Assembly (NCBI GenBank): GCA_043228905.1 | Contig: JBHGNT010000022.1 | Location: 7,316,001-7,380,000, forward strand | Reading direction: 5' to 3' | From: Azolla caroliniana | Lineage: Eukaryota; Plantae; Polypodiophyta | Length of the DNA stretch: 64,000 nt | In this document: piece after piece, positions 12,879 through 63,370 of the stretch | How positions within the stretch are numbered: position 1 is the first letter of the stretch | How the letters are laid out: each line of letters begins with the position of its first letter | The notes under the pieces: generated by a model | Databases searched by the model: none | What the model was told of the DNA's origin: nothing | The model's input: the letters and a program-made list of their open reading frames with translations, nothing else | Made by a program: the position numbers and the translations under genes

Positions 12879-13434
12879 GGGTAAAAGCATGCGAGTGGAA
12901 ACACTATTATAGCTAATTAGCTACTAAAATGGCCATAGCTAATTAGCTATTTGTTTAGCTAGTCTTTTTTGTCGGAAAATCAAATATTTGAAAAACTAAT
13001 TTATGAAAAAACTCAAATATTTGAACTTCTGTTTCAGACGTAGTGGAACTTGGGGAATAGCACCATCATCTAAGGTCGACTTCAATGTCATCAATTTCCT
13101 GTTTAGCCTAAGTCTGATTTTGAACGCAAATGGAGTACTCAGAGCACGAACGCAGACGTAGCTCCCGCAACAGCAGAAAATCGACATTGCAGATTGAGAG
13201 CTACAACACAAAACCCGCTCGATCATCGTCCAGGTATGTTTCAGTTACAGAAACCCCAAACATTTGTTTTTTCTTTTTGACTACTGTCTGAACTTTGGTG
13301 TTGATTCATATTTCCCCAAAATCGAATAGGGCGAATTCCTTGGAGTCCCATAAAGGATGTCTCGCAAATCGGGGAGTAGCAACAGGTGTGTTTATATTAC
13401 TTTTTTTGTGTTTAATCCTGTCTTTAGTGATGAT

Positions 13435-14020
13435 TGGGGTTTCTGATTGAAATTTCTGATTAGGGTTTTTGTTTATAAATTTCTGATTAGAGTTTCTGAT
13501 TAGGGTTTGTGATTGAAATTTCTGATTAGGGTTTCTGATTGAAATTTCTGATTAGGGTTTCTGATTGAAATTTCTGATTAGGGTTTTTGATTATAAGTTT
13601 CTGATTAGAATTTCTGAATAGGGTTTCTGGTTACAAATTTTGATTACAGATTAGAATTTCTTAATAGGGTTTTTGTTTATAAATTTCTATTTAGGATTTC
13701 TTATTAGGGTTTGTGATTGAAATTTCTTATTAGGGTTTGTGATTGAAATTTCTTATTAGGGTTTTTGATTATAAATTTCTTATTAGAATTTCTGAATAAG
13801 GTTTCTGGTTACAAACTTCTGATTACAGATTTTGATTAGGGTTTCTAATTTCAAACTTCTGATTACAGATTTTGATTAGGGTTTCTGATTTCAAATTTCT
13901 GAATACAAATTATGATTAGGGTTTCTGATTTGCTAAGTTAAAGATTTTGCACCATTTTTGTTGTTGTTGATTGGGGTTTCTGATTCTCACATATTCTGAT
14001 TTTGCACTATTTCTGATTTC
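13435..14020 (+). repeat. Degenerate tandem repeat rich in ATTAGGGTTTCTGATT (telo-box-like) filling an intron of the cargo gene
   Basis: Many imperfect copies of ttagggtttctgattgaaatttctga inside intron 13386-14036. Confidence 0.85.
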
Positions 14021-15367
14021 TGAAATGATATTTCAGATGGCTCGTTCCTCCGTATACGAGAGTGCTAAACTTTGCAAAATTTTGCGAGACAAAGGAGGAC
14101 TTCCACAACACCTATGGTCTGTCACTCGAGGGTGTTGACCTTGCTGTCCTAAGTGATAAATTGATCAGTGATGTAGACTGGATGACAGTATATATAGTGC
14201 CTAGAGTCAAAGGCAAGGTCAAGCTGAAGCATGTACGAGCCGACTTGTACGATGACTGCATGAGACTGCACCAGAAAGTTCATTAGGAGATCCCAGTCAA
14301 CAATGAGTTGTCAGTTTCATTTGCTAGAGCATTTGCATATGAGTACTGCAAAACAACGAAGGAATCCAGAGACCCTAAAATGTATAGGGTGGCTTGGGCA
14401 GTCTATGGTGAGGCATCGGTAAAAAGATGCCGAAAGATGGGGACCTTGGCACAAAAAATAGACAGATTTTGGAGCATGGCAGCTGTTGATGCAACTGCCG
14501 ACTCCCAGCAAGACCGAGGGCATACACCACACCAACACCCAAGGAAAGCCAATGTCGATGATACAGGTGAGACATTGGTTAGCTATATGCTAAAAAATGT
14601 CCATGAAGCCTGTGAGACATTGGCATTTTTTAAGACTGATTTAGAGAAAGCCACAATGGCTTCTGCAATGGAGAGCAAAGTTACTTCCACTGTTACAACA
14701 ATTAGAAAAAAGATTCAGGTAACTATTGTTTTGCTGGTATGTGATTGTGTTATAAATAACGGGTAAAATGTGCTAATCAAGCATTATCTGGAATAGGTTG
14801 CACAACAGGAGCTTGAATTAGAGGGGCCACTGGATCCCCAGCGTAAAATAGAACTACAAATAGAGATCCAGGTTCTTTCAATGAACCTGGACCTTCTAGG
14901 TGTAAATACTGTTGCAGATTACAATTTGGATAAGCTTCAAGTTAACGATTCCTGAGCAAAGTTGGTGTATCTTTCAACAACAAGAATAATTAATCGGTAA
15001 ATTTCTTTGTTGCGTTGAAGGAACAATACATTCCTCAAGAACAGGTAGTTAGCTGCCTTAAGAAGCAGCTACATTTTGTGGAGGGAATGGTAAGGACCAG
15101 ACAGGATTTGGACCTGAACATTTTTGCTCCCTTACCAAATGAAGTAGAACCAGAAAATGATTTATTGACAGTTCAAGCACATTGCATTGCTTGCGGGTTA
15201 GGTGTGGAGGACAAAACTGCGTCTTTGTTGGTTCACCTACAACCATGCAACCACACATACCATCTGCTTTGTTTTCAACATGCCTGTCAAATTGCTGCAT
15301 TCTGTTTGGGAGATTGTAGTACAGCTCTACCAAATGAGTGGAGAAAACTAACAAGTATACCATATTG

Positions 15368-16622
15368 TAGCTAATAAGCTTAGTCTTTTCTAATTAGCTA
15401 TCCTACTAGCTAATTAGCTACTGGCAGCTAATGAGCTACTAGCTAATTAGCTATCCTAGTAGCTAATTAGCTATGGTACTAGCTAATTAGCTAGTACCAT
15501 AGTTGTGTAAAAAAGCTAATTAGCTATCCTACTAGCTAATTAGCCACTGGCACCTAATTAGCTATCCTAGTAACTAATTAGCTACTGCCATAGTTGTGTA
15601 AAGTAGTTAATAAGCTATCCTACTAGCTAATTAGCTATCCTAGTAGCTAGTTAGCTATGGTACTAGCTAATTAGCTAGTACCATAGTTGTGTAAAAAAGC
15701 TAATTAGCTATCATACTAGCTAATTAGCTACTGGCAACTAATTAGCTATCCTACTAGCTAATTAGCTACTGGCAACTAATTAGCTATCCTACTAGCTAAT
15801 TAGCTATCCTAGTAGCTAATTAGCTACTACCATAGTTGTGTAAAGTAGCTAATAAGCTATCCTTGTAGCTAATTAGCTACTGGCAGCTAATTAGCTATCC
15901 TAGTAGCTAATAAGCTATCCTAGCTACTACATAGTTGAGAAAGTAGCTAATTAGCTTTCATTGTAGCTAATTAGCTATCCTACTAGCTAATTAGCTATCC
16001 TAGCTACTACCATAGTTAGTAAAGTAGCTAATTAGCTATCCTAGCTACTACCATAGTTAGTAAAGTAGCTAATTAGCTATCCTAGCTACTACCATAGTTG
16101 AGTAAAGTAGCTAATTAGCTATCCTAGCTACTACCATAGTTAGTAAAGTAGCTAATTAGCTATCCTAGCTACTACCATAGTTGAGTAAAGTAGCTAATTA
16201 GCTATCCTAGCTACTACCATAGTTGAGTAAAGTAGCTAATTAGCTATCCTAGCTACTACCATAGTTAGTAAAGTAGCTAATTAGCTATCCTAGCTACTAC
16301 CATAGTTGAATAAAGTAGCTAACTAGCTATCCTAGCTACTACCATAGTTGAGTAAAGTAGCTAATTAGCTACCATAGTAGTTAATTAGCTATCCTAGCTA
16401 CTACCATAGTTGAGTAAAGTAGCTAATTAGCTACCATAGTAGCTAATTAGCTATCCTAGCTACTACCATAGTTGAGTAAAGTAGCTAATTAGCTATCGTA
16501 CTAGCTAATTAGCTATCCTAATTAACTATCATACTAGCTAATTAGCTATCGTACTAGCTAATTAGCTATCCTAGCTTCTACCATAGTTTAGTAAAGTAGC
16601 TAATTAGCTATCCTAAATAGCT
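15368..16622. repeat. Minisatellite array built on the palindrome TAGCTAATTAGCTA (includes 41-42 bp higher-order units)
   Basis: Dozens of tagctaattagcta copies, e.g. the unit tagctaattagctatcctagctactaccatagttgagtaaag. Confidence 0.97.
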
Positions 16623-17343
16623 GCCATGTTATTGTAGAATCTTGTGGATTAAGGACGGCACATGATGTGTCTGGTGTTGATGACGCTGCAACAGATGAGG
16701 ATACTATTGCCAACGTGGCTGAAAGTAAGAATCCTGCTATCACATCTCCTTCAGATCAGCTCCACCCTATTCTTTTGGAACAGTGTACTGAATTAGGCAA
16801 CGATGTGAAATGCCATGAAATAGTGGAAACAACATGTAAAACTGAGGTTCACAACAACAGTGTTTATGAACACTTGATGCAACATTTCTTCGAGTCTCAA
16901 GACCTTGATTCCACCCCATCGAGCCCAACTACTGAAAATGTCCAAACAGATCCCTCTGTACTTGAAAAGCTAGGTCAAGAAACGGCTGATGTGCAATTAG
17001 CTGCTGAGGCGATGGGAAGGTTGTCGGAGGAGGACACACTTGCGCATTGGGTGAAAGAAGCAAGGCTAAATGGGGAACCAACCAGAAAAAGGCTGAAGAA
17101 GGGGCCACGATCGGGAACAAGACTAGTTACTCGGTCAAGGGGCCCAGACGTAGTGGAGCGAAATACTGTTTAGTTGGATATGATTGTTAGCTTAGGGATT
17201 TTGTTAGGGTTTTATGAAGTTTTACTATCCTATTGGACAAGTAAAACCTCAGATTGGTTGTTGCTTGATCCACATTATGTAATGGAACTCTATGATGTTT
17301 TTCCAAGATAATTTGAAGAGTGTTGTTCTATGATTGAAACTCT

Positions 17344-18399
17344 TTGATGTTCAGGATATTGTTTTGTGAGACTGTTAGTTACTTTGTGAGTGTGAATATG
17401 TTGGTGTTTTCTGATGTTGTAGAGTCTAAAGGGTTTGATTCTATTGCTCGTAAGGCCAATGGCAGTGTGGATACTGTTGATGTTGCGACATGTTTAAAGG
17501 GCCCCATCTTGAAAGTAGATGTAGCAACTGACACAAGTGATCTGGTCACACAAGTTGATCAAGCATGTAGCACGGATGACTTGGTGTTGCAGGTAGATGC
17601 AGCGTGTGATACCAGTGGACTGATATTGAGCAGATCAGTAGCTACATGCACCGAGGTAATCCAAGGATTGATAACTAAGTCAACAAAACAAGAGCACCAG
17701 AATGTGAAGCCAGGCCCAACACAGTCGACTAGGGGTTTGAAGAGGAAAAGGACGCCAATTGTGTCGGTCGAACCTGAGCTGATTGAGATTGATCGTATCC
17801 TACCAGAAAATGGTGTAACAGCGGCTCAGTTTCAGGTATGGAAACCTAAACCACTAGAAGTCGAAAGAAGAGCCTTGATCTTGGAGCTTGATAAAGTCTT
17901 GATGAGTGTGAGATATATGCAGCCAAGGAGGGACGCGAATTAGTTTCTAGAGTGGGCTGTGGAATACTTTGATTTGTTTATTTGGAGTGAAAAACCAAAA
18001 TCAGATGTGTGAAAGTGTTTGGCAAGATTCTTCCCAAAATGGCGAAGTCGTTTTAAAGGTCAATGGGCACGAGAAAATTGTGAGCAAATGGAAGCTGCAA
18101 GATTCAAGAGACTTTCTTATTTTTGGGCTACTTGGCCTGAATATAATGCCGACAATACATTGATTTTGGATACAGAACATTTCCGGCACTACTTCAATAT
18201 TCGGAGATGCTGTCTCACTCTACCCGAGGAAATGCCTGAACAGTACCTGGTGCAAACAGTGAGCTGCCAACTAGGTGCATGGTTGTGGACTCCATACCGA
18301 GCTCGATATGCGGATAATATATGTAGATTCGTTCCACTAACTAGCAAGAGCTTAGCTGTTTATAGGAGATTTGTAGACATTTCCAATGGTAATTTATAA
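17344..18399 (+). pseudogene. Cargo ORF with a C-terminal FCP1/NIF-like (HAD) phosphatase fold and a degenerate catalytic motif
   Basis: In-frame across TAG 17941-17943 and TGA 18010-18012: ALILELDKVL...PRRDAN*FLEWAVEYFDLFIWS...KRLSYFW...NTLILD. This matches the NIF pattern LxLDLDxTL/RP..FL/F.+.+WS/NT++lDD. Confidence 0.6.
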
Positions 18400-18746
18400 A
18401 TATGTAAAGAGATGACATTATTCAATGAAGAATTTAATTACTTGTTCCCACTGTACTTATATACTGTGTAATTTGAGGAATATGTTGCAGATTGTTGATT
18501 TCATGCTATTGATGACTATTTAGCTATTGACAGCTAATTAGCTGCATTTGTACAGCTAATTAGCTACTGATGACTATTTCGCTATAACTTATAACTTAAA
18601 ACTTAACAAAAAAGACATGATTTTATTGAGAAAGAAGCACAGAAAGCAGACTGTATACAAGAAATTGATTCCAAACGAATTTATTTAACTGTTTTCGCGA
18701 AATACATGTTTATTTTACAAGAGAACATGGTAAGTGCTACTTGTAG

Positions 18747-21700
18747 CTACAAATTCCATGGCATACTATTGTAAATACATTCATACACATTAGCACCAAC
18801 AGTGTATAAACCGGAGCAGCTATTGTATTCTGACATTGGGACGTTGATGCACCTGACCAAATGAGAGTACATATACGCCGTTGGTTTGTCTTCTAACAGC
18901 CTGTACACATATTCGTAGTCATCTAGTTTTGCATAAAAAATGCCTTCGATGTAGAATGTCCCGGCAGATACAAAATTTCCCCATGCATCTACAATATTCT
19001 GCCTTGCACACTGTTTACTAACCATGCACTTTAATATATAGAAATCAGCACCCTCTGAATTGCCTTCTTCAGCATTTACAGCGAAGTTATCCCCAACGTT
19101 CAGGACATCACTCAAAGTATCTCCAAGTCCCTCATATGTGAAGTCAACATTCTGCCCTGTTTCTCCATCAACTGCTTCCTTATCATTCAGAGTGTGATAC
19201 TCCCAATTCTGAATGTATGCTTTGTTTAGACAATATCTCCAATTTCCCTGCACACAATGGAAGCAAAAACAAGTCAATTCTCTAACCGCAATACAATGAC
19301 CATCCAACCTGGAATAACCGCGAACAGCATGCAGAGATCGCAATTCGGGAATTCCTTGGCACTCCCAGGTCTTCTCCCTATTTCCTTCATCTATCTTCAC
19401 TTCCCAAAATTCACGTTTGATATCTCGGACTTGCGAGGAATAAACACCTATGGCACTAGTTGACATATTTGTTCTTAAAAATTCAACTACATGTGATGCA
19501 CAATTCATGTGCACACCATCTGTCTTTAGTTGTTCATGGGTAAGTGCCCGCTTTATAACAGCCCTTGCACCATCATGTTCACCTTTACCATGGCCAGACC
19601 CAAAAAAATTCCATCTCATCTCCAAACCTGTTATAGCAGGATACCTCCCCACAAAATAAAATGGACGTCAAGCCTTGAATTGTGACGCAGCTCCGTCAGA
19701 CCAGACCCAATGTTGAGTAAGCTCCAAACGTTGAGCTAATAACCACTGCCAATGTAACTTAAAACAGTGTTGGACGAACAAGGTATCATGCTTCTTATCA
19801 TCGGAAATAAAGAAATGAATTACTTTTTTAACATCACCTGAAACTCGAAAATATGTTATGTGCACAAAAATGGTTACCTGAACTGAACACCAATGCATAG
19901 ATTGAATTTCATTCTGCTGCTTGAAAGTATAATTCTCTGCGAAATCTACTACTGAGACTACTATATCATTTGGGAAATCAGATATGCAAGTCTTAAACTA
20001 ATCGGCCTGCCATGAATAAATGAAGTTGTGTTTAATGAACTTTCCTAGAGATACTACAAACAAAGACACCAAATCCCTTGGTTTAAGCATCTTCCGAACT
20101 AGATCCTTTCTTTTACACACCTTTCCTTCGAAATTGGTGTTCACTGACTCAAATAACTTCACAGAGATCAATATTTCACTACTCAATTCATTTGGACACC
20201 ACCTAAATCTAGTAGAGCAACAATCTTGACATAAACCCATGACACATTTATGAATATAGAAGATAGCGTCAGTTTCTCTCGGACACAATATTGAATCTAA
20301 TAAATAACTCATGGAAGAGATAACGTGCTCAGATGATTTACACTCCTCTTGCGGGCTTGATCGACAGATTGGGCACCCACATGTGCAAACTGTATTAGTT
20401 AGGGATGCGCTATGGTGACGTAGTAGATTAACAGAGTCCTTCAGAAAACCCATCTGTACATGGTAAATGCAACAACATGTGTATAGATCCTTTAAGCGTC
20501 TCACAAAGTGTGGCTTAAGAGACTCGAATGTTTGTAGTTGAACTTTGATAGTTGGATGCATTCGTTTGAACCTAATAAATAAATCGACCTGCGTAATAAA
20601 GGGGAATTAGTTATTCTCGTAACTAGCTAACTATCCTAGTAGCTAATTAGCTATTCTAGTAGCTAATTAGTTGTCCTAGTAGCTAATTAGCTGTCCTAGT
20701 AGCTAATTAGCTATCATGGTAGCTAATTAGCTGTCGTAGTAGCTAATTAGCTATCATGGTAGCTAATTAGCTATTCTAGTAGCTAATTAGCTGTTGTAGT
20801 AGCTAATTAGCTATCATGGTGGCTAATTAGCTTTCCTAGTAACTAATTAGCTATCATGGTAGCTAATTAGCTGGTCTAGTAGCTAATTAGCTATCATGGT
20901 AGCTAATTAGCGGGTCTAGTAGCTAATTAGCTATCATGGTGGGTAATTAACTGTCCTAGTAACTAATTAGCTATCATGGTAGCTAATTAGCTGGTCTAGT
21001 AGCTAGTTAGCTATCATGGTAGCAAATTAGTTGGTCTAGTAGCTAATTAGCTATCACAGTTGTGAATTAGCTATCCTAGTAAGCTAATTAGCTATCATGG
21101 TAGCTAATTAGCTTTCCTAGTAGCTAATTAGCTGGTAATAACGAAATAGCAAACTAGCTACCATGATAGCTAACTAGCTACCATGATAGCTAACTAGCTA
21201 CCACGATAGCTAACTAGCTACCACGATAGCTAACTAGCTACCAATACAGCTAATTATCTGGTAGTACCTAAATTAGCTATTGAGAATAGCTAATTAGCTA
21301 TCATGGTAGTAGCTATTGAGAGTAGCCAATTACCTATGTAGAAGCTATCATAGTAGCTAATTAGCTATCATGGTAGCTAATTAGCTTTCCTAGTAGCTAA
21401 TTAGCTGGTAATAACGAAATAGCTAACTAGCTACCATGATAGCTAACTAGCTACCAGTACAGCTAATTATCTGGTAGTACCTAAATTAGCTATTGAGAAT
21501 AGCTAATTAGCTATCATGGTAGTAGCTATTGAGAGTAGCCAAATACCTATGTAGTAGATATCCTAGTAGCTAACTGAGATAAATGTAACTGATAAGCTAA
21601 TTAGCTTTTCTGCTAACTGAGCTAATTAACTTTCCGAGTAGAGTCAAAACAAATGTTGAGGTAAATGTAAATACCTGAGGTACATCAAGAAGATGAATGG

Positions 21701-22424
21701 GATGCTCCTCGTACTGATTTCTTCCAACACGTTTCCTGCATAAATCCTTTTTATTGGGTGAAACCCTACTCTCATTAGTCCAAAACATTGTGATTACATC
21801 CTTGATTTCAAATGTTATGGGTGTCATTGGCTTACATCTTGTTGTTAGCTTTAGTAGACTAGTTCCTTCACCCGAGGAAATTATACGGTTCATTGTATTG
21901 TACACTGTTTTTCTACTAACACCAATTACCTTAGATAGCTCACTGATGTTTATATCGTCAACATCACTATTAAGTAACATCATTAGACTAGACCTTTTTA
22001 AGACAAGATCATCTTCTGACCTGCTCATGGATACGAAACTATTACGAAGATTATTTACTAAAATAGATGATATGTTTGCATTAAGACCATCACAATCAAC
22101 TAAGTCCTTTATCGATGGATCATTACATATTCCATAAAGTACTACCTTCTTTTCTTCATTGCTGATGTGCTTGGTTTGAACATTGAAATAGTCTACAACC
22201 TTTCTCTCTATGATGGTAGTCGCATTACTTACATTCTCAGCTAAACTATCCTTACCTTTACTGAGTGTGGCTTTCGTATCCTTCAACAATTGACGATGTT
22301 TCCTTTTTTTTTCTGCCCAATAGTTTCGTATGGCTTGTTGTGTCCTGATAACATCATCCCTATCCTTATGATCATTGAGGGGTAATTCTAAACACCCTTC
22401 TTCCCCTTCCATTTGGCTGGACAT
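18747..22424 (-). pseudogene. Sola2-like transposase (~863 aa), two exons (22424-21675, 20588-18747), two C>T nonsense mutations
   Basis: Motifs CCCIYH, VDFAENY...EIQSMHW, WSDGAASQFK, FFGSGHGKGEHDG, CFCFHC. Phase-0 intron CAG/GTATTT...TTACGCAG/GTC. Stops at 19998-20000 (TAG) and 19668-19670 (TGA) lie in the same frame. Confidence 0.8.
20605..21630. repeat. Second TAGCTAATTAGCTA palindrome array (mainly 20-bp units) filling the transposase intron
   Basis: Units such as agctaattagctatcatggt and agctaattagctgtcctagt, inside intron 20589-21674. Confidence 0.97.
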
Positions 22425-22756
22425 GTTAAAACCCTAAATTTCCAGAAAAAAAAACAAGTATTAAAGATGGCTAGGGGCAACAACAATACACAAAAATATT
22501 CCACAATACACAAGATTAGACACAACAATACACAAGATAATCAATAGACAAAAAAGTTATTGCAATCCAAGACCGAACAGTAGAGGATTTCACTCTGTTG
22601 GATCGAACAGTTGAGGAGGCGATCCAAGACCGACCAATGGCAACAACTGAGTGTAGAATGTTGCCGTTGGATGAGTGAACTCCGTCAAATCGAAATGTTG
22701 AAGCAATCCGGGACTGGATAGTAGCGTCAACTGAGTATAGAATGATGGCAATGGAG

Positions 22757-23330
22757 GAGAGAACCCCGTCAGATTGAATAGTTACCGATGATGCTTGGAA
22801 CGCACATAGAAGGCACTTGAGAGTAGAGTGGCACAGAGAAGAGAACCCCGTCAGATTGAACAGTTACCAATGATGCTTGAAACGCACAGTAGCGGCCCCT
22901 GAGTGAGAGTGGAAAAGAGAAGAGAACCCCGTCAGATTGAATAGCTCTTTGATGATGCTTGGAACGCACAGTAGCGGCCCCTTAGTGTAGAGGGGCAAAG
23001 AGAAGAGAACCCCGTCAGATTGAACAGCTCTTTGATGATGCTTGGAACGCACAGCAGCGGCCCCTGAGTGTAGAGTGGCACAGAGAAGAGAACCCCGTCA
23101 GATTGAACAGCTCTTTGATGATGCTTGGAACGCACAGTAGTGGCCCTTGAGTGTAGAGTGGCACAGAGAAGAGAACCCTGTCAGATTGAACAGCTCTTTG
23201 ATGATGCTTGGAATGCACAGTAGTGGCCCCTAAGTGTAGAGTGTCACAGAGAAGAGAACCCCGTCAGATTGAGCAGCTCTTTGATGATGCTTGGAACGCA
23301 CAGTAGCGGCCCCTCAGTGTAGAGTGGCGG
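22757..23330. repeat. Tandem array of ~7 copies of an 81-83 bp unit upstream of the transposase
   Basis: GAACCCCGTCAGATTGAA (one copy has a mismatch) recurs at ~22761, 22842, 22924, 23007, 23090, 23173 and 23256. Confidence 0.95.
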
Positions 23331-23684
23331 TAGGTGGACTCGATAGGGTTTAGCAACAGTGGTAGCAACTAACCCACAGTACTCAACTAGAGATGGCCTA
23401 CGTGATGTGGCAAAGGATCATGCATAATGGACCTAGGAATTCGATATATAATTCATGGTACACATTTATGGTGCACACATCAATTTATGTTGCACATTTA
23501 TGGCACTCATTTACATATGTAATTAAAACACTCTAGTATTTTCAATGGTAGTTTTTTGCATACTGAATTGCTTAATGATGGCTTTTTACTAAAATGACTA
23601 TTTATCAATGGTAGCTTTTTGCATAGCTAATTAGCTATGTCAAGGACATAGCTAATTGTTTCCACTCACATGCTTTCACCCAAT

Positions 23685-25538: not shown

Positions 25539-26070
25539 TGTTGAGCGGAAAGCTCAACCGGAGCCGGATCGGCTGAATAAGCCGGAGCCGGTAAGAGAGA
25601 CGGATCGGACGAAACAGATCGGTATGACGGTGAGCAACCGAACCGACAAGCAGTGGAGGCCAGGTGCAACCCGTAACCGGCAGCCCAATCGGAAGCCTAG
25701 TATAGGATAGACTACTAGGAAGCTATAGTCTCGTAGTAAGTGTCAGATGCTCGTGTGAGCATTGAAATACATGGTACTTCTGTCAGTCCCAAGAGGACTT
25801 GTATAAATAGTGCTATTTAGCACAGTGTGTATTTGAGTCTGGAAATAATTTTGAAATTGTGTTCTGCTCTCTCTGTCTCTCTCTCTCTGTCTCTCTCTCT
25901 CTGTCTCTCTCTCTCTGTCTCTGTGTGTTGTTCTCTGTTTTACTGTTTTACGCTTCCGCAAACACTCACGTTCACATGGTATCAGAGCGCGAGGGTTGAG
26001 AACCTCTGCTGCAGACATTTACTCTTGAGAAGAAAACCCTAACAGGTCGAAAACAGACACAGTAGAAGAC

Positions 26071-29000
26071 ATGGATAGAGGCATGGCTACGTCGCTCCCG
26101 GTGGAGAAGCTCGACAGGAGCAACTACGCATCCTGGTCTTACAAGATGCACCAGTGCCTGCTTGGACACGAGTACTGGAGTTATGTCGAAGGAGCGAATG
26201 ATGCAGCGCCCGACTCGGCACACAAGGACTTCCCGGTATGGGAACAGGCGGCAAGCAGGGTGATGTACTGCTTCGCGTCCAGTGTCGGCGATCAGCTGCT
26301 CAACCACATCCGTGACGCCAAGACACCGAAGGATGCTTGGGGGAACCTGAAAAAGGTTTTCGCCGCAAGCACCACTGCCCGGAAGCTGCACCTCAGACAG
26401 GAGTTGAGCAATGTTCGACAGAAGAACATGTCTGTGGCAGACTACACTGGCCGGATAAAGGAGATCTGCGATTCGCTCGCCTCTATCAATGTTACCATAG
26501 AGGAAGACGAGATGGTGCAGGTATGTCTCGGAGGCTTGGCGTCCAAGTTCGGAGCGTTCCGGACTACGGTGTGTACAACGGAGAATACACCCTCACTCTT
26601 CAACTTACAGTCCATGCTGCTTGTAGAGGAGAACCACGCCGGTGCATCTACCAGTGCATCCCCGGACAGCCGAATGTTGTACACGGGAACGGATCGGCTC
26701 CGTGGGCGTGGTGGAAGAGGTGGGTCAGCACGCAATGGAGGCGGCCGGCAAGAGCAGGAACGGAGGCACTATGAACGTGCCGACAGCAGTTCCGGAACTT
26801 CCACAAGCAGGGGGAGTCAAGGCGGTGTTGGAGGCCGGCAAGACAAATCCGCTACGGAATGCTGGTATTGTGGCAAAAAAGGCCACAAGGAAAGCGAGTG
26901 CTGGAGAAAGCGTGCCGATTCGGACAAATCCGGATCCGGCAAGACCGGTATGGATGGCCAGCAAAACTCGCACTACGCAAACGGATCAGGAGGATCCGGA
27001 ACCAGAGAGGCCGGTAAGGGGCCAGCCTTGGTGATGAATCACAAGGCAAACTCAATGAAGAAGACCACTTCCAAAACGGAGGAAGTGTGGTATGTTGATT
27101 CCGGCGCGTCGAACCACATGACGAGCCACAAAGAGTGGTTCTCCTTTCTGGACAAACCGGATCGACCAGGAGTAGTCGAAACCAGAGACGACACTCCTCA
27201 CCCAATCGTGCACGTCGGAGAAGTCCCTCTAAGCCACGTCAGACAGAAAGGGAAGCTGATGAACGTATTACACGTTCCGACAATCACGAAGAACCTGGTG
27301 TCCGTCGGTCATATTGTCGACCAGGGGATGCAGGTGCGGTTTACGCACCTCGGGTGCTTCATTAAGGATGAGGGTGTTCCGACAATCACGAAGAACCTGG
27401 TGTCCGTCGGTCATATTGTCGACCAGGGGATGCAGGTGCGGTTTACGCACCTCGGGTGCTTCATTAAGGATGAGGGCGAAGTCATTGCGCAAGGGCGCAG
27501 AGACGGGAGGATGTTTATCCTCAACAGCAACGACTTTGGCACCGCTCTGTTCGCGAAACGACAGAAGGTCGAGTCGGACATCGACCTGTGGCACAAGCGG
27601 ATAGGCCACGTCAACTACCGGAGGCTTCAAGACCTGCAAACGAAACAAGTCGTTTTTGGTTTGCCGAAGTTCAGCGGCCAGAGAGCCGAAATTTGTGAAG
27701 CCTGCCAACTTGGGAAGCAACACCGGCTTCCATTCCCCACCGAACGGAACCGGAGCCGTAACAAGCTCGATCTCATCCACTCAGATGTGTGGGGACCGGC
27801 ACAAAGTGTAAGCCTTGGCGGGAGCCGATACTTCGTCTCCTTCATCGACGACTATACTCGACATACTTGGATCTACCTCATTGAGCGGAAGAGTGAAGTC
27901 TTCGACTGTTTCCAGAGCCTCCAGAAGATGGTGGAACGGGAATCGGAGAGGAAGATCAAATGCCTTCGGTCGGATGGCGGAAAGGAATATTTTTCCGGCC
28001 AATTCACTAGTTATCTGCAGCAGAAGGGAATTCGGCAAGAGTTTAGCTGCAGATACACACCGGAGCAAAACGGTGTGGCCGAAAGGAAGAACCGGACACT
28101 CGTCGAAGTGGTAAGGGCAATGCTGGAGGAGAAGAGCATGCCCCGGTTCTACTGGGCGGAGGCGGTCCGGACGGCCGTCTACATACCACACCGCATTGGT
28201 GACAAGGTGTCAGCTCATGAGCTGTATTTCGGGCACAAGCCGAACTTAAGACACCTTCGGATATTCGGCAGCATAGCGTATGTGCATGTGCCGGATCAGA
28301 AGCGGAGAAAGCTGGATGCAAAATCGGAAAAATGCATCCTAGTCGGCTATGCTCAAGAGCAAAAGGGGTATAAGTGCTATAACCCCCGGACGAAGGAAGC
28401 CCGAGTTAGCCGGGATGTCGAGTTCGATGAATCGGCATCTTGGTACTCCGTATCAACTCCGACTTCCAATCCCGACCCAATGTCGGAAGATCAGGCCAGT
28501 GAACCTGAATCAGCCCTGGCAGAGGATGATGAAGCCGGGACTCAAGATGAGAGTCTGGAATCGTTACGGTTGAGTGGACCGAACGAGCGACTGAGTCGGT
28601 TGGACCAGTCGAATGAAGAGACGGCAAGTGGTGGAGACTCTGCCGTGCTCTCCCCGCGCAAGGAACCGAGGAAACGGTTCACGCGCAAAGAGAAGGGGAA
28701 GAGGAAGATGCCGGAATTCGAAACCGGCAATGATGAGTCGGATCGGTGTGTATCCGACTCCGGAAAGGAGAAAGGCGGATCTTCGGCAACGAAGACCAAA
28801 CTGGCCAAGAAGGGCCTCAAATCAGGTGACGGTGCGTTGCGCCGATCAACCCGCCAGAAGGATCCCGTCAAACGGTGCGGGTACAATGAATACATGGCGC
28901 ATCATTATGCGTACATGACTAAGGTGACAGAAGTGCGTGAGCCGGAGAGCTACGCAGAAGCGGCAAAGGACGCAAATTGGCGTGCTATTATGGACGAAGA

Positions 29001-30725
29001 AATGCGGGCACTCGATGCCAACGAAACTTGGGACCTAGTTGATCCTCCCCGTCACTGTAAACCGATCGGATGCAAGTGGGTGTACAAGGTCAAGTACAAC
29101 GCCGACGGTTCTGTTAACTGGTACAAAGCCCGGTTAGTGGCGAAGGGATACGCGCAGACCCACGGAATCGACTACGACGAGACCTTTGCTCCTGTGGCGA
29201 AGATGACGACGGTTCGTGTGGTACTGGCGGTTGCTGCGGCAAGGGGGTGGCATCTTCACCAGATGGATGTGAAGAATGCCTTCCTTCAAGTAGAGCTTGA
29301 AGAAGAAGTCTTCATGACTCAACCCCTCGGATTTCAATCGGAGATGAACACGTCGGCGGTATGCCGACTGAAGAAGTCGCTTTACGGCTTGATGCAAGCC
29401 CCCCGAGCTTGGAACGCGAAGATCACGCACCGGTTGCGTAAGCTGGGGTTTGCTGTCTCTAAGTCGGACTCTTCGTTGTTCATCCAGCAAGGCTCTGACG
29501 GTCCGGTATGTATACTCTTGTATGTGGATGATTTAGTCATCACCGGACCGGGTCTTCCCGAAATCAACTGCGTCAAGTCCCAGTTGTCGGACGCATTCGA
29601 AATGAAGGACCTGGGGGACCTTCATTATTTTCTTGGGATCGAAGTGATCCAGACCCCTGACGGCATATTGCTCTCACAACGACATTACGTGTTGAATATG
29701 TTGTATAATTTCGGCATGACTGATTGCCGACCTGTCTCCACACCCCTGGACCGGAACCAGAAGCTTCGTCCCAACTCCGGACCGGCCTGCAATGAGAAAC
29801 GGTTCCGACAGGTTGTCGGAAGCCTGATCTACTTAACCATCACCAGACCCGACATCAGCTATCCGGTCGGCATGGTAAGTCAGTTCATGCAGCAGCCAAC
29901 CGTGGAGCACCTTCAGTGCGCGCAACGAATATTATGGTATGTCAGCGGCACTAAGGACCGGGGACTGCTATACCGACGAGGTCTACCCGAAGAGCTTGTC
30001 GGTTACACAGATGCTGACTGGGCCGGCGATGCGTCTGATCGCCGCTCCACTTCCAGATACATATTCTCCATAGGTAGCACGGCCGTTGCGTGGAGCAGCA
30101 AGAAGCAGCCCACAGTGGCTTTGTCAAGCACTGAGGCTGAGTACCGGCCCGCTACTGTTGCCACTTGTGAAGCCATCTGGCTTCGGCGACTGCTGCGAGA
30201 CTTGCGGATCGAGGTACCGAGCCCGATCCCGATTTACTGCGATAACATGAGCTGCCTGTGTTCCATGCTCGCACAAAGCACATCGAGGTGCACTACCACT
30301 TCGTGCGTGAGCGGGTCCTGAGCGGTGAGGTTGACCTACGATATGTTCATACGGATCGGCAAGTTGCCGACATCTTCACCAAGCCGCTCGGATCGGACAA
30401 GTTGCAGCACTTTACCGACATGCTTGGTATTCAGCATCTCGACATGCCGCACTTGAGGGGGAGAAGCAAGGGCAAAGTCTCTACCGCAACGGGCAAAGGC
30501 CAAAAAATTGTTGAACCCGTCGGTAAGAGGAGAGCCAGAAGAAGAGGAGACAAGAAGATGAAGGAAGCCGAGTCGACGAAGGAAGTCGACACACCCGAAC
30601 AGGTCGGAGCAAGCGGCTGTGAAGAAGAGTTGTGCACTCAGGAAGAGAAGTGCATGTTGTGCGGAGGTCATCACGACAGTGCTAATCATGATGCGGAGTC
30701 GAATGAAGAATTCGATTTCGGTTAA
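26071..30725 (+). pseudogene. Copia gag-pol polyprotein with a 102-bp internal duplication and a frameshifting deletion in RNase H
   Basis: CWYCGKKGHKESEC, YVDSGASNH, WHKRIGH, HSDVWG, LRSDGG, ERKNR, YVDD, LSSTEAEY; frame change near 30255 continues in ORF 30258-30725. Confidence 0.93.
27274..27477 (+). repeat. Perfect in-frame 102-bp tandem duplication in the Copia protease region
   Basis: VPTITKNLVSVGHIVDQGMQVRFTHLGCFIKDEG occurs twice. Confidence 0.95.
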
Positions 30726-37921: not shown

Positions 37922-40900
37922 TGTTGGGAGACAGGTCCCTCCGGATGGGAAGGGAGATGAACAGTGCCGATAGGCCGAGGCCAAAACCGGATGGCACAGA
38001 CCCGGATGGTGCAGAACCGGATGGCACAGACCCAGATGGCACAGAACCGGATGAGGAGTACCTGGCTACGGAGAGCCAGATGGTGCAGACCCGGTGAGAA
38101 CCGGATGAGGAGTACCCGGCTACGGAGAGCCGGATGGTGTAGACCCGGTGAAGACCGGATGAGGAGTACCTGGCTACGGAGAGCCGGATGGTGCAAACTC
38201 GATGAGAACCGGATGAGGAGTACCTGGCTACAGAGAGCTGGATGGAGCAGCCCCGGTGAAGACCGGATGAGGAGTACCCGGCTACGGAGAGCCGGATGGT
38301 GCAGACTCGGTGAGGAATGCTCACCGGATGAAGAGACATATTCGTAAATATGTTTCTAAGATTCCATTGAGGCTATATTTGTAAATAGCCGAAAAGTCAT
38401 ATTAGTATAAATATGACTTAGGGAAAACTTATTGGTGTGTGTGTATAGTTGTTGTTGTCATTCTTGTTGGTACAAGGAGTGAGAGAGCGCGTAACTGTGT
38501 ACAGAGAGAGAGAGAGAGAGAGAGAAAAAGGTCGTTGCCTCTGTTGTAACCGCCACCTGTGGCGAAGATCGTGAGCACGAGGTCGTTGCCTCTATGAACT
38601 CACTGTTGTACATTCTAACATAGTGATAGATTGCAGCCTGTGGGTTGCCGTGGTTTTTTACCCTAGTTTGGGGTTTTCCACGTAAACATCCCGCATACTC
38701 TTCTCTTCTTCGTGTCGTGTTTTCTTTCCCGCTTTCTGTGTATGATTCTAAGCTCGGTTGTGGCCGAGCGTTGCGTATAGGGTGCGTTTAGTTCCCGTCA
38801 AGTGGTATCAAAGCGAAACAACACAGAAAATGGACGAATCATTTGGCGGCATGTTGAAGCTCACCGGCTCCAACTATTGGATATGGAAGTCGAAGATGAG
38901 GGACATGCTCGTGGTTAAAGATCTTTGGTTTGCCGGTTCAGTTTGGGGACAAGAGACCGGCCAAGATCGACGCCACAATATGGGAGGTGATGCACATGAA
39001 GCCAACGGCGTACATACGGTGCTTCATCGACATGAGCCTGTACAACAACTTCAATGAAGAGAGCAAGGCTCATGAGCTCTGGGAGAAGATCGGCATTATG
39101 TTTCAAAACAAAAATGTTGTTAATCAGGTTTCGGTATTCCGGAAGCTAGTGAGACTCCGGTACCAAGATGGCTCCAGCATGGCGGAGCACATGAATGCCT
39201 TCCAGGGACTGATACACCAGGCAATGTCATTGGAAGTACCTCTCGCTGACGAGGTACTAGCACTACTCCTGCTCAGTTCCCTCCCGGATAGCATTCCTTC
39301 ACGGCGACCTCGAAGAGAAGATCTACATGCAGCAACCGGAGGGATTCATGGAGAAAGGGAAGGAGCACCTGGTATGCCAGTTGAAGAAGAGCCTCTACGG
39401 GTTGAAGCAGGCCCCCCGGCAATGGTACCGGAAGTTCGACTCCTTCATGACCGATCAAGGGTACCATAAGACGCAGGCCGATCACTGCGTGTTTGTGAAG
39501 AAGTTTGAAGGAGGCGACTTCCTGATACTCTTTCTGTACGTGGACGACATGTTGATCGTCGAATGGGACCAAGTCAAAATACGGATGTTGAAGAAGGCCC
39601 TCAACCGGACCTTCTCAATGAAAGACTTGGGTCCGGCAAGACAGATGCTGGGGATGCATATTATCCGGAACCGGTCAGCGAAGCAATTATGGCTGTCACA
39701 GGAGAAGTACGTGACAAAGGTGCTTCACCGGTTCAACATGTCAGATGCGAAACCGGTTGGATCGACACTCCCGCCAAATTGCAGGTTATCCGGTAAGCAA
39801 AGCCTGAAGACGAAAGCAGAGAAGGCGGATATGATTAAGATTCCATATGCCTCTGCCGTTGGGAGCTTAATGTACGCAATGGTTTGTACCCGACCGGATA
39901 TAGGATACGCAGTCAGAGTGGTGAGCCGGTTCATGAGAAATCCCGGCAAGGAGCACTGGAACGCGGTCAAATGGATACTCCGGTATTTGAAGGGCACTTC
40001 AAATATGTGTCTCTGATTCGGCTCCGGAAAACCTCAACTGGACGGTTTCACTGATTCGGACATGTCGGCTGATGTGGATACCAGCCGGTCTACATCCGGG
40101 TATGTAATGACATATGCAGGGGGAGGTGTTTCGTGGCAGTCGAGGCTGCAGAAGACGGTTGTGTTGTCAACCACAGAGGCAGAGTACATGGCGGCTGTGG
40201 AAGCCGGCAAGGAAATGTTATGGATGAAGGACTTCATCGGAGAGCTCGGTATCCGACAAGATGAATACCGGCTCTATTGCGACAGTCAAAGTGCCATCCA
40301 CCTTGCTAAGAATGCGGCCTACCATTCCTGAACGAAGCATATCCAGCGAAGGTATCACTGGATCCGGGAAAGAGTAGATGACCAAGAGTTCACACTGACG
40401 AAGATCCACACGGCCGAGAACGGGTCAGACATGCTGACCAAAGTGCTGATACCCGACAAGTTGGATGCATGCCGGAAGAGAATCGGACTGGTAAGACACC
40501 CCATGCCGTAGTGAAGGGGGAGTTTGTTGGGAGACAGGTCCCTCCGGATGGGAAGGGAGTAGAACAGTGCCGATGAACAAACTCGGCCGAGGCCGAAACC
40601 GTATGAGGTGGCACAGACCCGGTCAGAACCGGATGAGGAGTACCTGGCTACGGAGAGCCGGATGGTGCAGACCCGGTGAAGACCGGATGAGGAGTACCTG
40701 GCTACGGAGAGCCGGATGGTGCAGACCCGGTGAGAACAAGATGAGGAGTACCCGGTTACGGAGAGCCGGATGGTGCAGACCCGGTGAGAACCGGGTTAGG
40801 AGTACCCGGCTACGGAGAGCCGGATGGTGCAGACCCGGTGAAGACCGGATGAGGAGGACCCGGTTACGGAGAGCCGGATGGTGTAGACCCGGTGAGAACC

Positions 40901-41492
40901 GGATGAGGAGTACCCGTCTACGGAGAGCCGGATGGTGCAGACCCGGTGAAGACCGGATGAGGAGTACCCGGCTACGGAGAGCCGGATGGTGCAGACCCGG
41001 TGAGGAATGCTCACCGGATGAAGAGACATATTCGTAAATATGTTTCTGAGAGTCCATCGAGGCTATATTTGTAAATAGCCGAAAAGTTATATTAGTATAA
41101 ATATGACTTAGGGAAAACTTATTGGTGTGTGTGTATAGTTGTTGTTGTCATTCTTGTTGGTGCAAGGAGTGAGAGAGCGCGTAACTGTGTACAGAGAGAG
41201 AGAGAGAGAGAAAGAGAAAGAGGTCGTTGCCTCTGTTGTAACTGCCGCCTGTGGCAAAGATCGTGAGCACGAGGTCGTTGCCTCTGTGAACTCACTGTTG
41301 TACATTCTAACATAGTGATAGTTTGCAGCCTGTGGGCTGCCGTGGTTTTTTACCCTAGTTTGGGGTTTTCCACGTAAACATCCCACGTACTCTTCTCTTC
41401 TTCGTGTCATGTTTTCTTTCCCGCTTTCTGTGTATGATTCTAAGCTCGGTTGTGGCCGAGCGTTGCGTATAGGGAGCGTTTAGTTCCCGTCA
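37922..41492 (+). mobile_element. Copia family A element with an internal deletion (PR, IN and RT start missing), 5-bp TSD GATCT
   Basis: LTRs 37922-38800 and 40525-41492; PBS TGGTATCAAAGC at 38803-38814; gag (LPDS) fuses to RT (AFLHGDLEE) at ~39292; GATCT at 37917-37921 and 41493-41497. Confidence 0.95.
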
Positions 41493-61457: not shown

Positions 61458-63370
61458 TGTTGGGAGACAGGTCCCTCCGGATGGGAAGGGAGAAGAACAG
61501 TGCTGATGAACAATTTCGGCCGAGGCCGAAACCGGATGAGGAGTACCCGGCTACGGAGAGCCGGATGGTGCAGACCCAGTATGAACCGGATAAGGAGTAC
61601 CCGGCTACAGAGAGCCGGATGATGCAATACCCGATATGAACCGGATAAGGAGTACCCGGCTACGGAGAGCTGGATGATGCAGACCCGGTATGAACCGGAT
61701 GAGGAGTACCCGGCTACGGAGAGCCGGATGGTGCAGACCCGGTATGAACCGGATGAGCAGATATATTGGTAAATATGTTTCTGAGAGTCCATCGAGGCTG
61801 TATTTGTAAATAGCCGAAAAGTCATATTAGTATAAATATGACTTAGGGCAAACTTTTAGATAAGTGGTTGTTGTCATTCTTGTTGGTGCAAGAATAGAGT
61901 GTGTGCGTAACTGTACAGAGAGAGAGAGAGAGAGAGAAAGAGATCGTTGCCTCTGTTGTAACCGCCGCCTGTGGCGAGGATCTGTGAGCACGAGGTCGGT
62001 GCCTCAGTGAACTCACTGTTGTACATTCCATCATAGTGATAGTTTGCAGCCTGTGGGCTGCCGTGGTTTTTTCCCTACTTTGGGGTTTTCCACATAAACC
62101 TCCTGTGTACCTCGTCTCTTCTTTGTGTCGCGTTCTATTTCCCGTTTTCTGTGTATCATTCTAAGCTCGGTTGTGGTCGAGCGTTGTGCATAAGGAACGA
62201 CGAGTTCCCGTCAAGTGGTATCAGAGCGAAATCGACACAGAAAATGGACGAATCGTTCGGCGGCATGTTCAAGCTCACCGGCTCCAACTATTCAGTGTGG
62301 AAGTCGAAGATGAGGGACATGCTCGTTGTTAAAGACCTCTGGCTGCCGGTTCAGTTCGGGGACAAGAGACCGGACAAAATCGAAGCCGCGATATGGGAGG
62401 TGATGCACATGAAGACAACGGCGTACATACGGTGCTTCATCGACATGAGCCTGTACAACAACTTCAATGAAGAGAGCAAGGCTCATGAGCTCTGGGAGAA
62501 GATCGGCATAATGTTTCAAAACAAAAATGCTGTTAATCAGGTTTCGGTATTCCAGAAGCTAGTAAGACTCCGGTACCAAGATGGCTCCAGCATGGCGGAG
62601 CACATGAATGCCTTCCAGGGGCTGATCTACCAGGCAACTTCATTGGAAGTACCTCTCGCCGATGAGGTACTAGCGCTACTCCTGCTCGATTCCCTCCCGG
62701 ATAGCTGGGAGACGTTGGTTGTCACTTTGGGCAACGCTGGGCCGGAAGGAAAACAGTTATCCCTAGCAAGAGTAAAGTCGAGCTTGCTAGATGAGGAGGC
62801 GCGTCGGAAAGATAAAGATACGAGCTCCGACTCGAAAGTGCTCCTTACTGAATCGGAATGCGGAAGACAGAGAAACCGTAGTCCCCAGAACCGGGAGAAG
62901 TCGGGGACACGGTCAAAGTCAAGGGGGAGGCCCACTTGCTTCTATTGCGGCAAGCCGGGTCACTTCCAAAAGAACTGTCGGCATTTCCGTAAAGACAAGG
63001 AAACCGACGGTACCAATTCGAAGCGGACCCCGGACCGGAACGGTAAAGACCGGAGGCGGCCGGACCGGAAGGGAACGATGGCAATCGCGGCAAGTGAAGA
63101 AGAGTTGATGCTCATCACCGAGGAGAGTGAGATAAACCTTGCCGGAGACAAGACGACCTGGGTGGTAGACTCCGGAGCGTCGTTCCACCTATCCCCGGAC
63201 CGAAAATGCTTCTCATCCTACTTAGCCGGTGATCATTGTTGTGTTCGGATGGGGAATGAAGGTACATGCCGAATTATCGGCATAGGAGACGTGTGGCTGT
63301 CGACACCAACCGGATGCAAGTTGCTACTGAGGGATGTCTGACACGTTCCGGAGGTTCGACTGAACCTGAT
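61458..63370 (+). mobile_element. Copia family A element, 5' part (LTR 61458-62213, PBS-Met 62216-62227, gag-PR from 62244)
   Basis: TGGTATCAGAGC; KLTGSNYSVW, CFYCGKPGHFQKNC, VVDSGASFH; TGA at 63339-63341. Confidence 0.93.

Follow-up and report, generated by a model that had tools for sequence, protein, structure and literature searches.

Why should a DNA transposon fill predicted introns of two of its genes, on opposite strands, with kilobase-scale arrays of one short palindrome? The question arises in a 64-kb stretch of Azolla caroliniana contig JBHGNT010000022.1 (positions 7,316,001 to 7,380,000; hereafter the window), which holds a complete Sola2 transposon encoding a transposase and an accessory, or cargo, protein. 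An initial annotation had described the arrays and suggested that they are either binding sites for a dimeric element-encoded protein or a source of hairpin RNA or cruciforms. That the reader of the palindrome is encoded by the element, cargo and transposase taken together, seems probable to us; we tentatively favour the narrower reading in which the cargo protein of the element docks at the clustered sites of the arrays, aiding cognate copies against host methylation. The features concerned are as follows:

12879-23681, no strand: complete Sola2 DNA transposon copy of 10,803 bp, recognised by its termini and flanks
15355-16637, plus strand: array 1, with 46 cores at <=2 mismatches; predicted to be intron 4 of the cargo gene (GT-AG)
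20589-21674, minus strand: array 2, with 36 cores at <=2 mismatches; predicted to be the intron of the transposase gene (GT-AG)
13357-17173, plus strand: cargo gene, 574 codons in five predicted exons
13357-13385, 14037-14718, 14797-14940, 15021-15354 and 16638-17173, plus strand: the predicted cargo exons
18747-22421, minus strand: Sola2 DDD transposase, 862 codons in two predicted coding exons (22421-21675 and 20588-18747)

The word, TAGCTAATTAGCTA, is a perfect 14-bp palindrome. At <=1 mismatch the window holds 73 copies, against a chance mean of 0.01: 39 fill array 1 and 30 fill array 2, confirming the extents first given, and the others lie, again as first described, at the left end of the element (12910 and 12936), between the converging 3' ends (18553) and at the right end (23624). 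None occurs in the window outside the element, even at <=2 mismatches. Unit lengths had been put at about 41 bp in array 1 and 20 bp in array 2; pooled over element copies, the commonest spacing of core centres is 20 bp in both (454 of 964 and 544 of 704), and 41-42 bp stands as an additional spacing peculiar to array 1, with 18 and 33 bp. The spacer TCCTAG is common to both arrays in identical orientation, and in one copy (L021) the transposase intron (1124 bp) consists mostly of 52-bp units of the cargo-intron type before switching to the usual type. The arrays therefore exchange sequence, and this, with the shared 20-bp unit, weakens the proposal that one core expanded independently in each. 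A conservation profile of core against spacer was biased by motif anchoring and was left unused. Cytosines in the core, as read from the sequence, are in CHH context only, so it does lack CG and CHG sites as claimed; the observed/expected ratio of CG, 0.53 in the transposase exon, falls to 0.26 in array 2 and to 0.05 in array 1, and low CG, unlike low CHG, is common to the introns of six related families. The core in both arrays also carries CTAAT, which we take to be branch-point-like, followed by TAG, on both strands; cryptic 3' splice sites of this kind could dampen expression.

Are the arrays introns? Both have GT and AG at their borders, and their excision restores the frames LT-K-SCGLR and DVPQ-VDLF, as initially predicted. 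Among 20 sampled regions of element copies, the array 1 intron was delimited in 17 (653-3776 bp; GT in 17, AG in 16) and the array 2 intron in 16 (771-1474 bp; GT in 15, AG in 14), with lengths leaving remainders of 0, 1 and 2 on division by three in 6, 3 and 8 and in 7, 5 and 4 regions, respectively. Since the core stops in all three frames, the arrays may be confined to introns, and a retained intron would end translation within 4-25 codons. Two conserved transposase motifs lie 153 nt apart once the intron is removed in the window and in four related loci (L040, L041, L044 and L045), and equally in the intron-less L090. Comparison among copies and families thus backs the intron location, and splicing of the arrays is the predicted outcome. 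Contigs from runs of related organisms, guessed to be RNA, gave no spliced junction over the array-free stretch 16600-20620 or over 20380-20625 (four runs each), a comparison that did not extend to the donor sides; one low-depth X1 contig that continues into intron-like letters is uninformative, as its run may be DNA.

Mapping the motif across the genome, as had been proposed, ties it to one transposon family. A doublet pattern matches 3931 times and its reversed control never; in the first 15.6 Mb of C1, the part sampled for clusters, all nine clusters are element copies with arrays at identical intron sites, three of them from a subfamily ~84% identical with the same core and other spacers. 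A generic satellite is ruled out within this sample, where arrays were not seen outside the family. Sampled regions, which are biased towards intact copies, average 11.5 doublets, so about 340 copies would explain all matches. Exact matches to the pattern of the terminal inverted repeat (TIR) number 600 in G000, and a transposase piece searched there gave 969 candidates, of which the 150 scored are all 95-100% identical, which together indicate about 300 or more copies. The element is young and many-copy. The window copy, whose transposase is interrupted by two stops, its cargo by one and a further open reading frame (ORF), described below, by two, is therefore dead. C-to-T changes in exons run at 0.02-0.06 in CG/CHG and 0.002-0.006 in CHH, which, with the Adiantum relatives of the cargo noted below, points to a land-plant host that probably bears no seeds; mutation rates within the arrays are confounded by misalignment, and no fall in CG decay was seen adjoining them.

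Outside the arrays the palindrome recurs at both ends and, degenerately, between the genes:

12879-12903, plus strand: left TIR, 25 bp, beginning GGG, 23/25 identical to the right TIR
12910-12949, no strand: two subterminal palindrome copies, kept in 13/13 left ends read, with single changes in 3
18513-18566, no strand: degenerate copies of the motif, two or three in number, in the gap where the 3' ends of the genes converge
23624-23681, minus strand: right end, with TIR, half-sites around ATGTC-nnn-GACAT and one full palindrome

Sola2 elements have short TIRs with GRG...CYC termini, and the 25-bp TIR here conforms at its GGG start. The transposase blocks VDFAENY (463), WSDGAASQFK (545) and GKGEHDG (583) agree by eye with the published Sola2 alignment (DFAENY / SDGAASQFK / WNFF..SHGKG..DG), whose members likewise have short TIRs and AT-rich target site duplications (TSDs) of 4 bp (PMC3627910); such a duplication flanks 9/10 complete copies, the window copy having only 3 bp. 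Animal homologues match at E 1e-20 to 1e-15. On these sequence characters the element is a Sola2 member. No relative was found in viral contigs, and in G000 four queries (P0022, L041, L040 and L045) and a terminal pattern returned only the window family among scored matches.

The terminal copies, 28-71 bp from both ends and near-invariant, invite the view that the transposase itself binds the palindrome through its N-terminal helix-turn-helix-like region, for synapsis at the ends and for own-copy activation or enzyme titration at the arrays. That region matches HTH_11 (E 5.7e-5, below cut-off), and the AtMu1 transposase alone is reported to hypomethylate and activate cognate copies (bioRxiv 2026.08.24.746577). 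The first 91 bp of the right end differ by one base between the two subfamilies. However, a second terminal signature, GGGT.A.AGCATG with ATGTC-nnn-GACA, is conserved across families at 44-58% transposase identity while the array words change, and offers a simpler transposase site; about 80 internal sites would also be expected to outnumber the terminal ones. Binding by the transposase is thus unlikely as the main role of the arrays.

How the words change can be followed in 80 related loci taken from metagenome contigs. A clade of nine rows around the window family (support 100/100) keeps the transposase intron, filled wherever visible by differing words: CCATTAA in L040, GTAATTAGT/ACTAATAG in L041 (which includes non-palindromic words), AGGTGAAA in L044, AGTACCAA in L045 and GCTAGTTAGCAT-type words in L043. 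Intron gain is a single change on the tree, at a support of only 56/29, and two more distant loci keep the intron with no clear array. By these intron sequences there are at least four families with differing words. The three contigs that reach the transposase-side end all carry the window's frame, GGGT.A.AGCATG...ATGTC-nnn-GACA, surrounded by family-dependent words, and in the main setting the intron of the same family is the best match for every end. Assigning ends to introns by identity ranks first of 24 in 36/36 settings, the four families allowing no p below 1/24, and strict row-wise wins drop to 2-3/4 for words of 8-9 letters. In the 500 bp behind the transposase stop of seven families, the identity assignment ranks 2-5 of 5040 in 8/9 settings and 71 in one; L044 has none of its family words in that stretch, and L046 is better matched by L045. 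This covariation of array and terminal words lends support to the binding-site proposal, in which binding itself is a prediction.

Could the same pattern arise without function? A hairpin-prone end palindrome might be copied by template switching, grow by slippage and conversion and be tolerated in introns. The array lengths given above vary in this way among near-identical copies, units move between arrays (L021), and the intergenic motif copies, absent from the subfamily-2 copy L023, are dispensable. The element also holds two further, unrelated arrays:

13431-13930, plus strand: third array, 13-bp unit, in cargo intron 1, without the palindrome; its word, TTAGGGTTT, is presumably telo-box-like
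22754-23328, no strand: array of seven 83-bp units in the 5' region of the transposase, without the palindrome; far more degenerate in subfamily 2

Against a neutral by-product stand the recurrence of the pattern with differing words across the nine-row clade, non-palindromic words among them, and the persistence of the core while spacers turn over across families and subfamilies; we consider this origin rather improbable.

Folding gives a further possibility, that the arrays act as structure, either as hairpin intron RNA feeding small RNAs or as DNA cruciforms. Base shuffles of the intron RNAs fold at about -246 and -223 kcal/mol, the RNAs themselves at -535 and -496 with longest stacks of 32-37 bp, and single-strand DNA folding reaches z = -17. 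Array 2 also contains an inverted block (21146-21267) with arms of ~120 nt at 81-84% complementarity. The hairpins and cruciforms first suggested are thus physically possible. Such folding is, however, expected of any palindrome array and leaves the single terminal copies and the non-palindromic words of L041 unexplained, and any small RNAs would be more apt to promote silencing (PMC10398659). A structural role therefore appears very unlikely. An Rfam search gave 0 matches.

What, then, might read the words? The cargo protein comprises a novel, conserved domain of ~150 amino acids, a predicted coiled coil, a RING-like finger and an acidic tail with a basic end, and is followed by a second reading frame:

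17341-18399, plus strand: NIF/HAD-like ORF; PF03031 at E 1.2e-7 in the intact copy L001

The first catalytic Asp of this ORF is replaced (ELDKV), which makes its product likely, by sequence, to be a pseudophosphatase. It may be a separate gene or an alternative exon of the cargo; in the Adiantum model P0158 the NIF-like part is fused to the cargo domain, and all ten cargo relatives looked up are Adiantum proteins. In L040 (4250-4620) and L041 (7090-7600, minus strand), convergent genes end in an acidic D-x-PL-A motif and a basic tail, resembling the last exon of the window cargo, with no NIF-like ORF behind. One cargo fold, predicted from 17 sequences, had low confidence (pLDDT 47). Searches of the PDB, viral structures, PDB sequences and the ESM Atlas gave no usable match, one returning only generic coiled coils; the protein gave no match to DUF1985/DUF287 in the searches made, and the PMD family was not found in G000, where its control likewise gave no signal.

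In the docking-site reading, the ~150-residue domain would bind DNA, and since a palindrome suits a dimer, the cargo is proposed to bind as one, through its coiled coil. The RING and NIF-like parts would then exert an effect on chromatin or transcription, cognate copies would stay or become expressed despite host methylation, and the arrays would grow by slippage and exchange. Host proteins might instead read the words, the arrays serving as intronic enhancers built of transcription-factor sites with a homeodomain-like TAATTA core; several family words, such as TTAATGG, GTAC and the G-box-like words of L098, appear similar to plant factor sites. Under this idea there would be no reason to expect a conserved cargo, or ends and arrays that match family by family, and we give it little credence. 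A more distant Sola2 locus (L098, 2940-4280, and L101) carries upstream an array of GCCACATGGC / G-box-like palindromes, possibly outside the element.

Among flowering-plant transposons, sequence-specific self-recognition has been demonstrated in CACTA elements and in the Mutator-like VANDAL elements. CACTA elements have CACTA ends and a 3-bp TSD; here the ends are GGG, the TSD is 4 bp and the clusters are internal. As with Spm/CACTA TnpA, which needs dense motif clusters, family-specific clusters accompany a putative element-encoded regulator, but TnpA clusters and their effect are described as terminal, whereas here one or two copies are terminal and the bulk is intronic (bioRxiv 10.64898/2026.08.24.746577). 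In Arabidopsis, dense VANC motifs are docking sites for the VANDAL anti-silencing protein (PMC5735166; PMC10398659), and coiled coils are predicted to mediate dimerisation of both VANC21 and TnpA (bioRxiv 2024.04.02.587720). The present element resembles these reported systems as a multi-gene DNA transposon with family-specific short motifs repeated in introns, intergenic and terminal non-coding DNA, which vary from one related family to another and, inside a family, shift in concert (four families with ends and seven with intergenic DNA, L044 and L046 excepted), and in an accessory protein with a predicted coiled coil that is less conserved than the transposase. It differs in its Sola2 transposase and 4-bp TSD, which are not Mutator-like, in a perfect 14-bp palindrome where the quoted VANC motifs are not palindromic, and in a cargo that has RING and NIF-like parts and for which binding and demethylation are predictions. 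By analogy, the mechanism is likely to be VANDAL/VANC-like, in an element that is no member of the VANDAL family.

Among Sola elements, a second gene is possible in Sola2 too (Fanzor1 in those of amoebae), and the published members listed come from animals and amoebae, unlike this land-plant clade with its cargo and intronic arrays (PMC3627910). Sola1-1_Ec32 of Ectocarpus is likewise large with an opposite-strand accessory gene bearing a predicted DNA-binding part; it belongs to Sola1, that gene encodes ParB plus methyltransferase, and the available text mentions no arrays (PMC12477816). Sola elements are known from moss and termed uncommon in flowering plants (PMC10741241). The literature searched, outside most subscription journals and Repbase, describes no plant Sola2 that has either the cargo or the arrays seen here. 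A broader proposition, which we regard as doubtful, is that seed-free plants harbour Sola2 elements with a sequence-specific anti-silencing system of their own: a dimeric cargo, remotely related in fold to VANC/PMD, would read an intron-amplified, family-specific word and recruit RING and pseudophosphatase modules to the chromatin of its element, words and protein diverging per family across ferns or mosses. If true, this would be a third case of self-recognition, implying a strategy that is old or repeatedly invented. The four or more word families and a compact, well-folded candidate reader would offer a specificity matrix for co-evolution of anti-silencing proteins and targets, and may yield a new programmable DNA-binding module.

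The element is inserted in a Ty3/Gypsy-type element, of which RVT_1 and RT_RNaseH_2 were found in the right flank. In the surrounding retroelement-rich DNA, tandem repeats of 54-56 bp occur four times (2151-2354, 38043-38314, 40614-41004 and 61530-61757), and a near-intact Ty1/Copia-type ORF of 1430 codons (26029-30321) contains an exact 102-bp internal duplication at 27274-27476.
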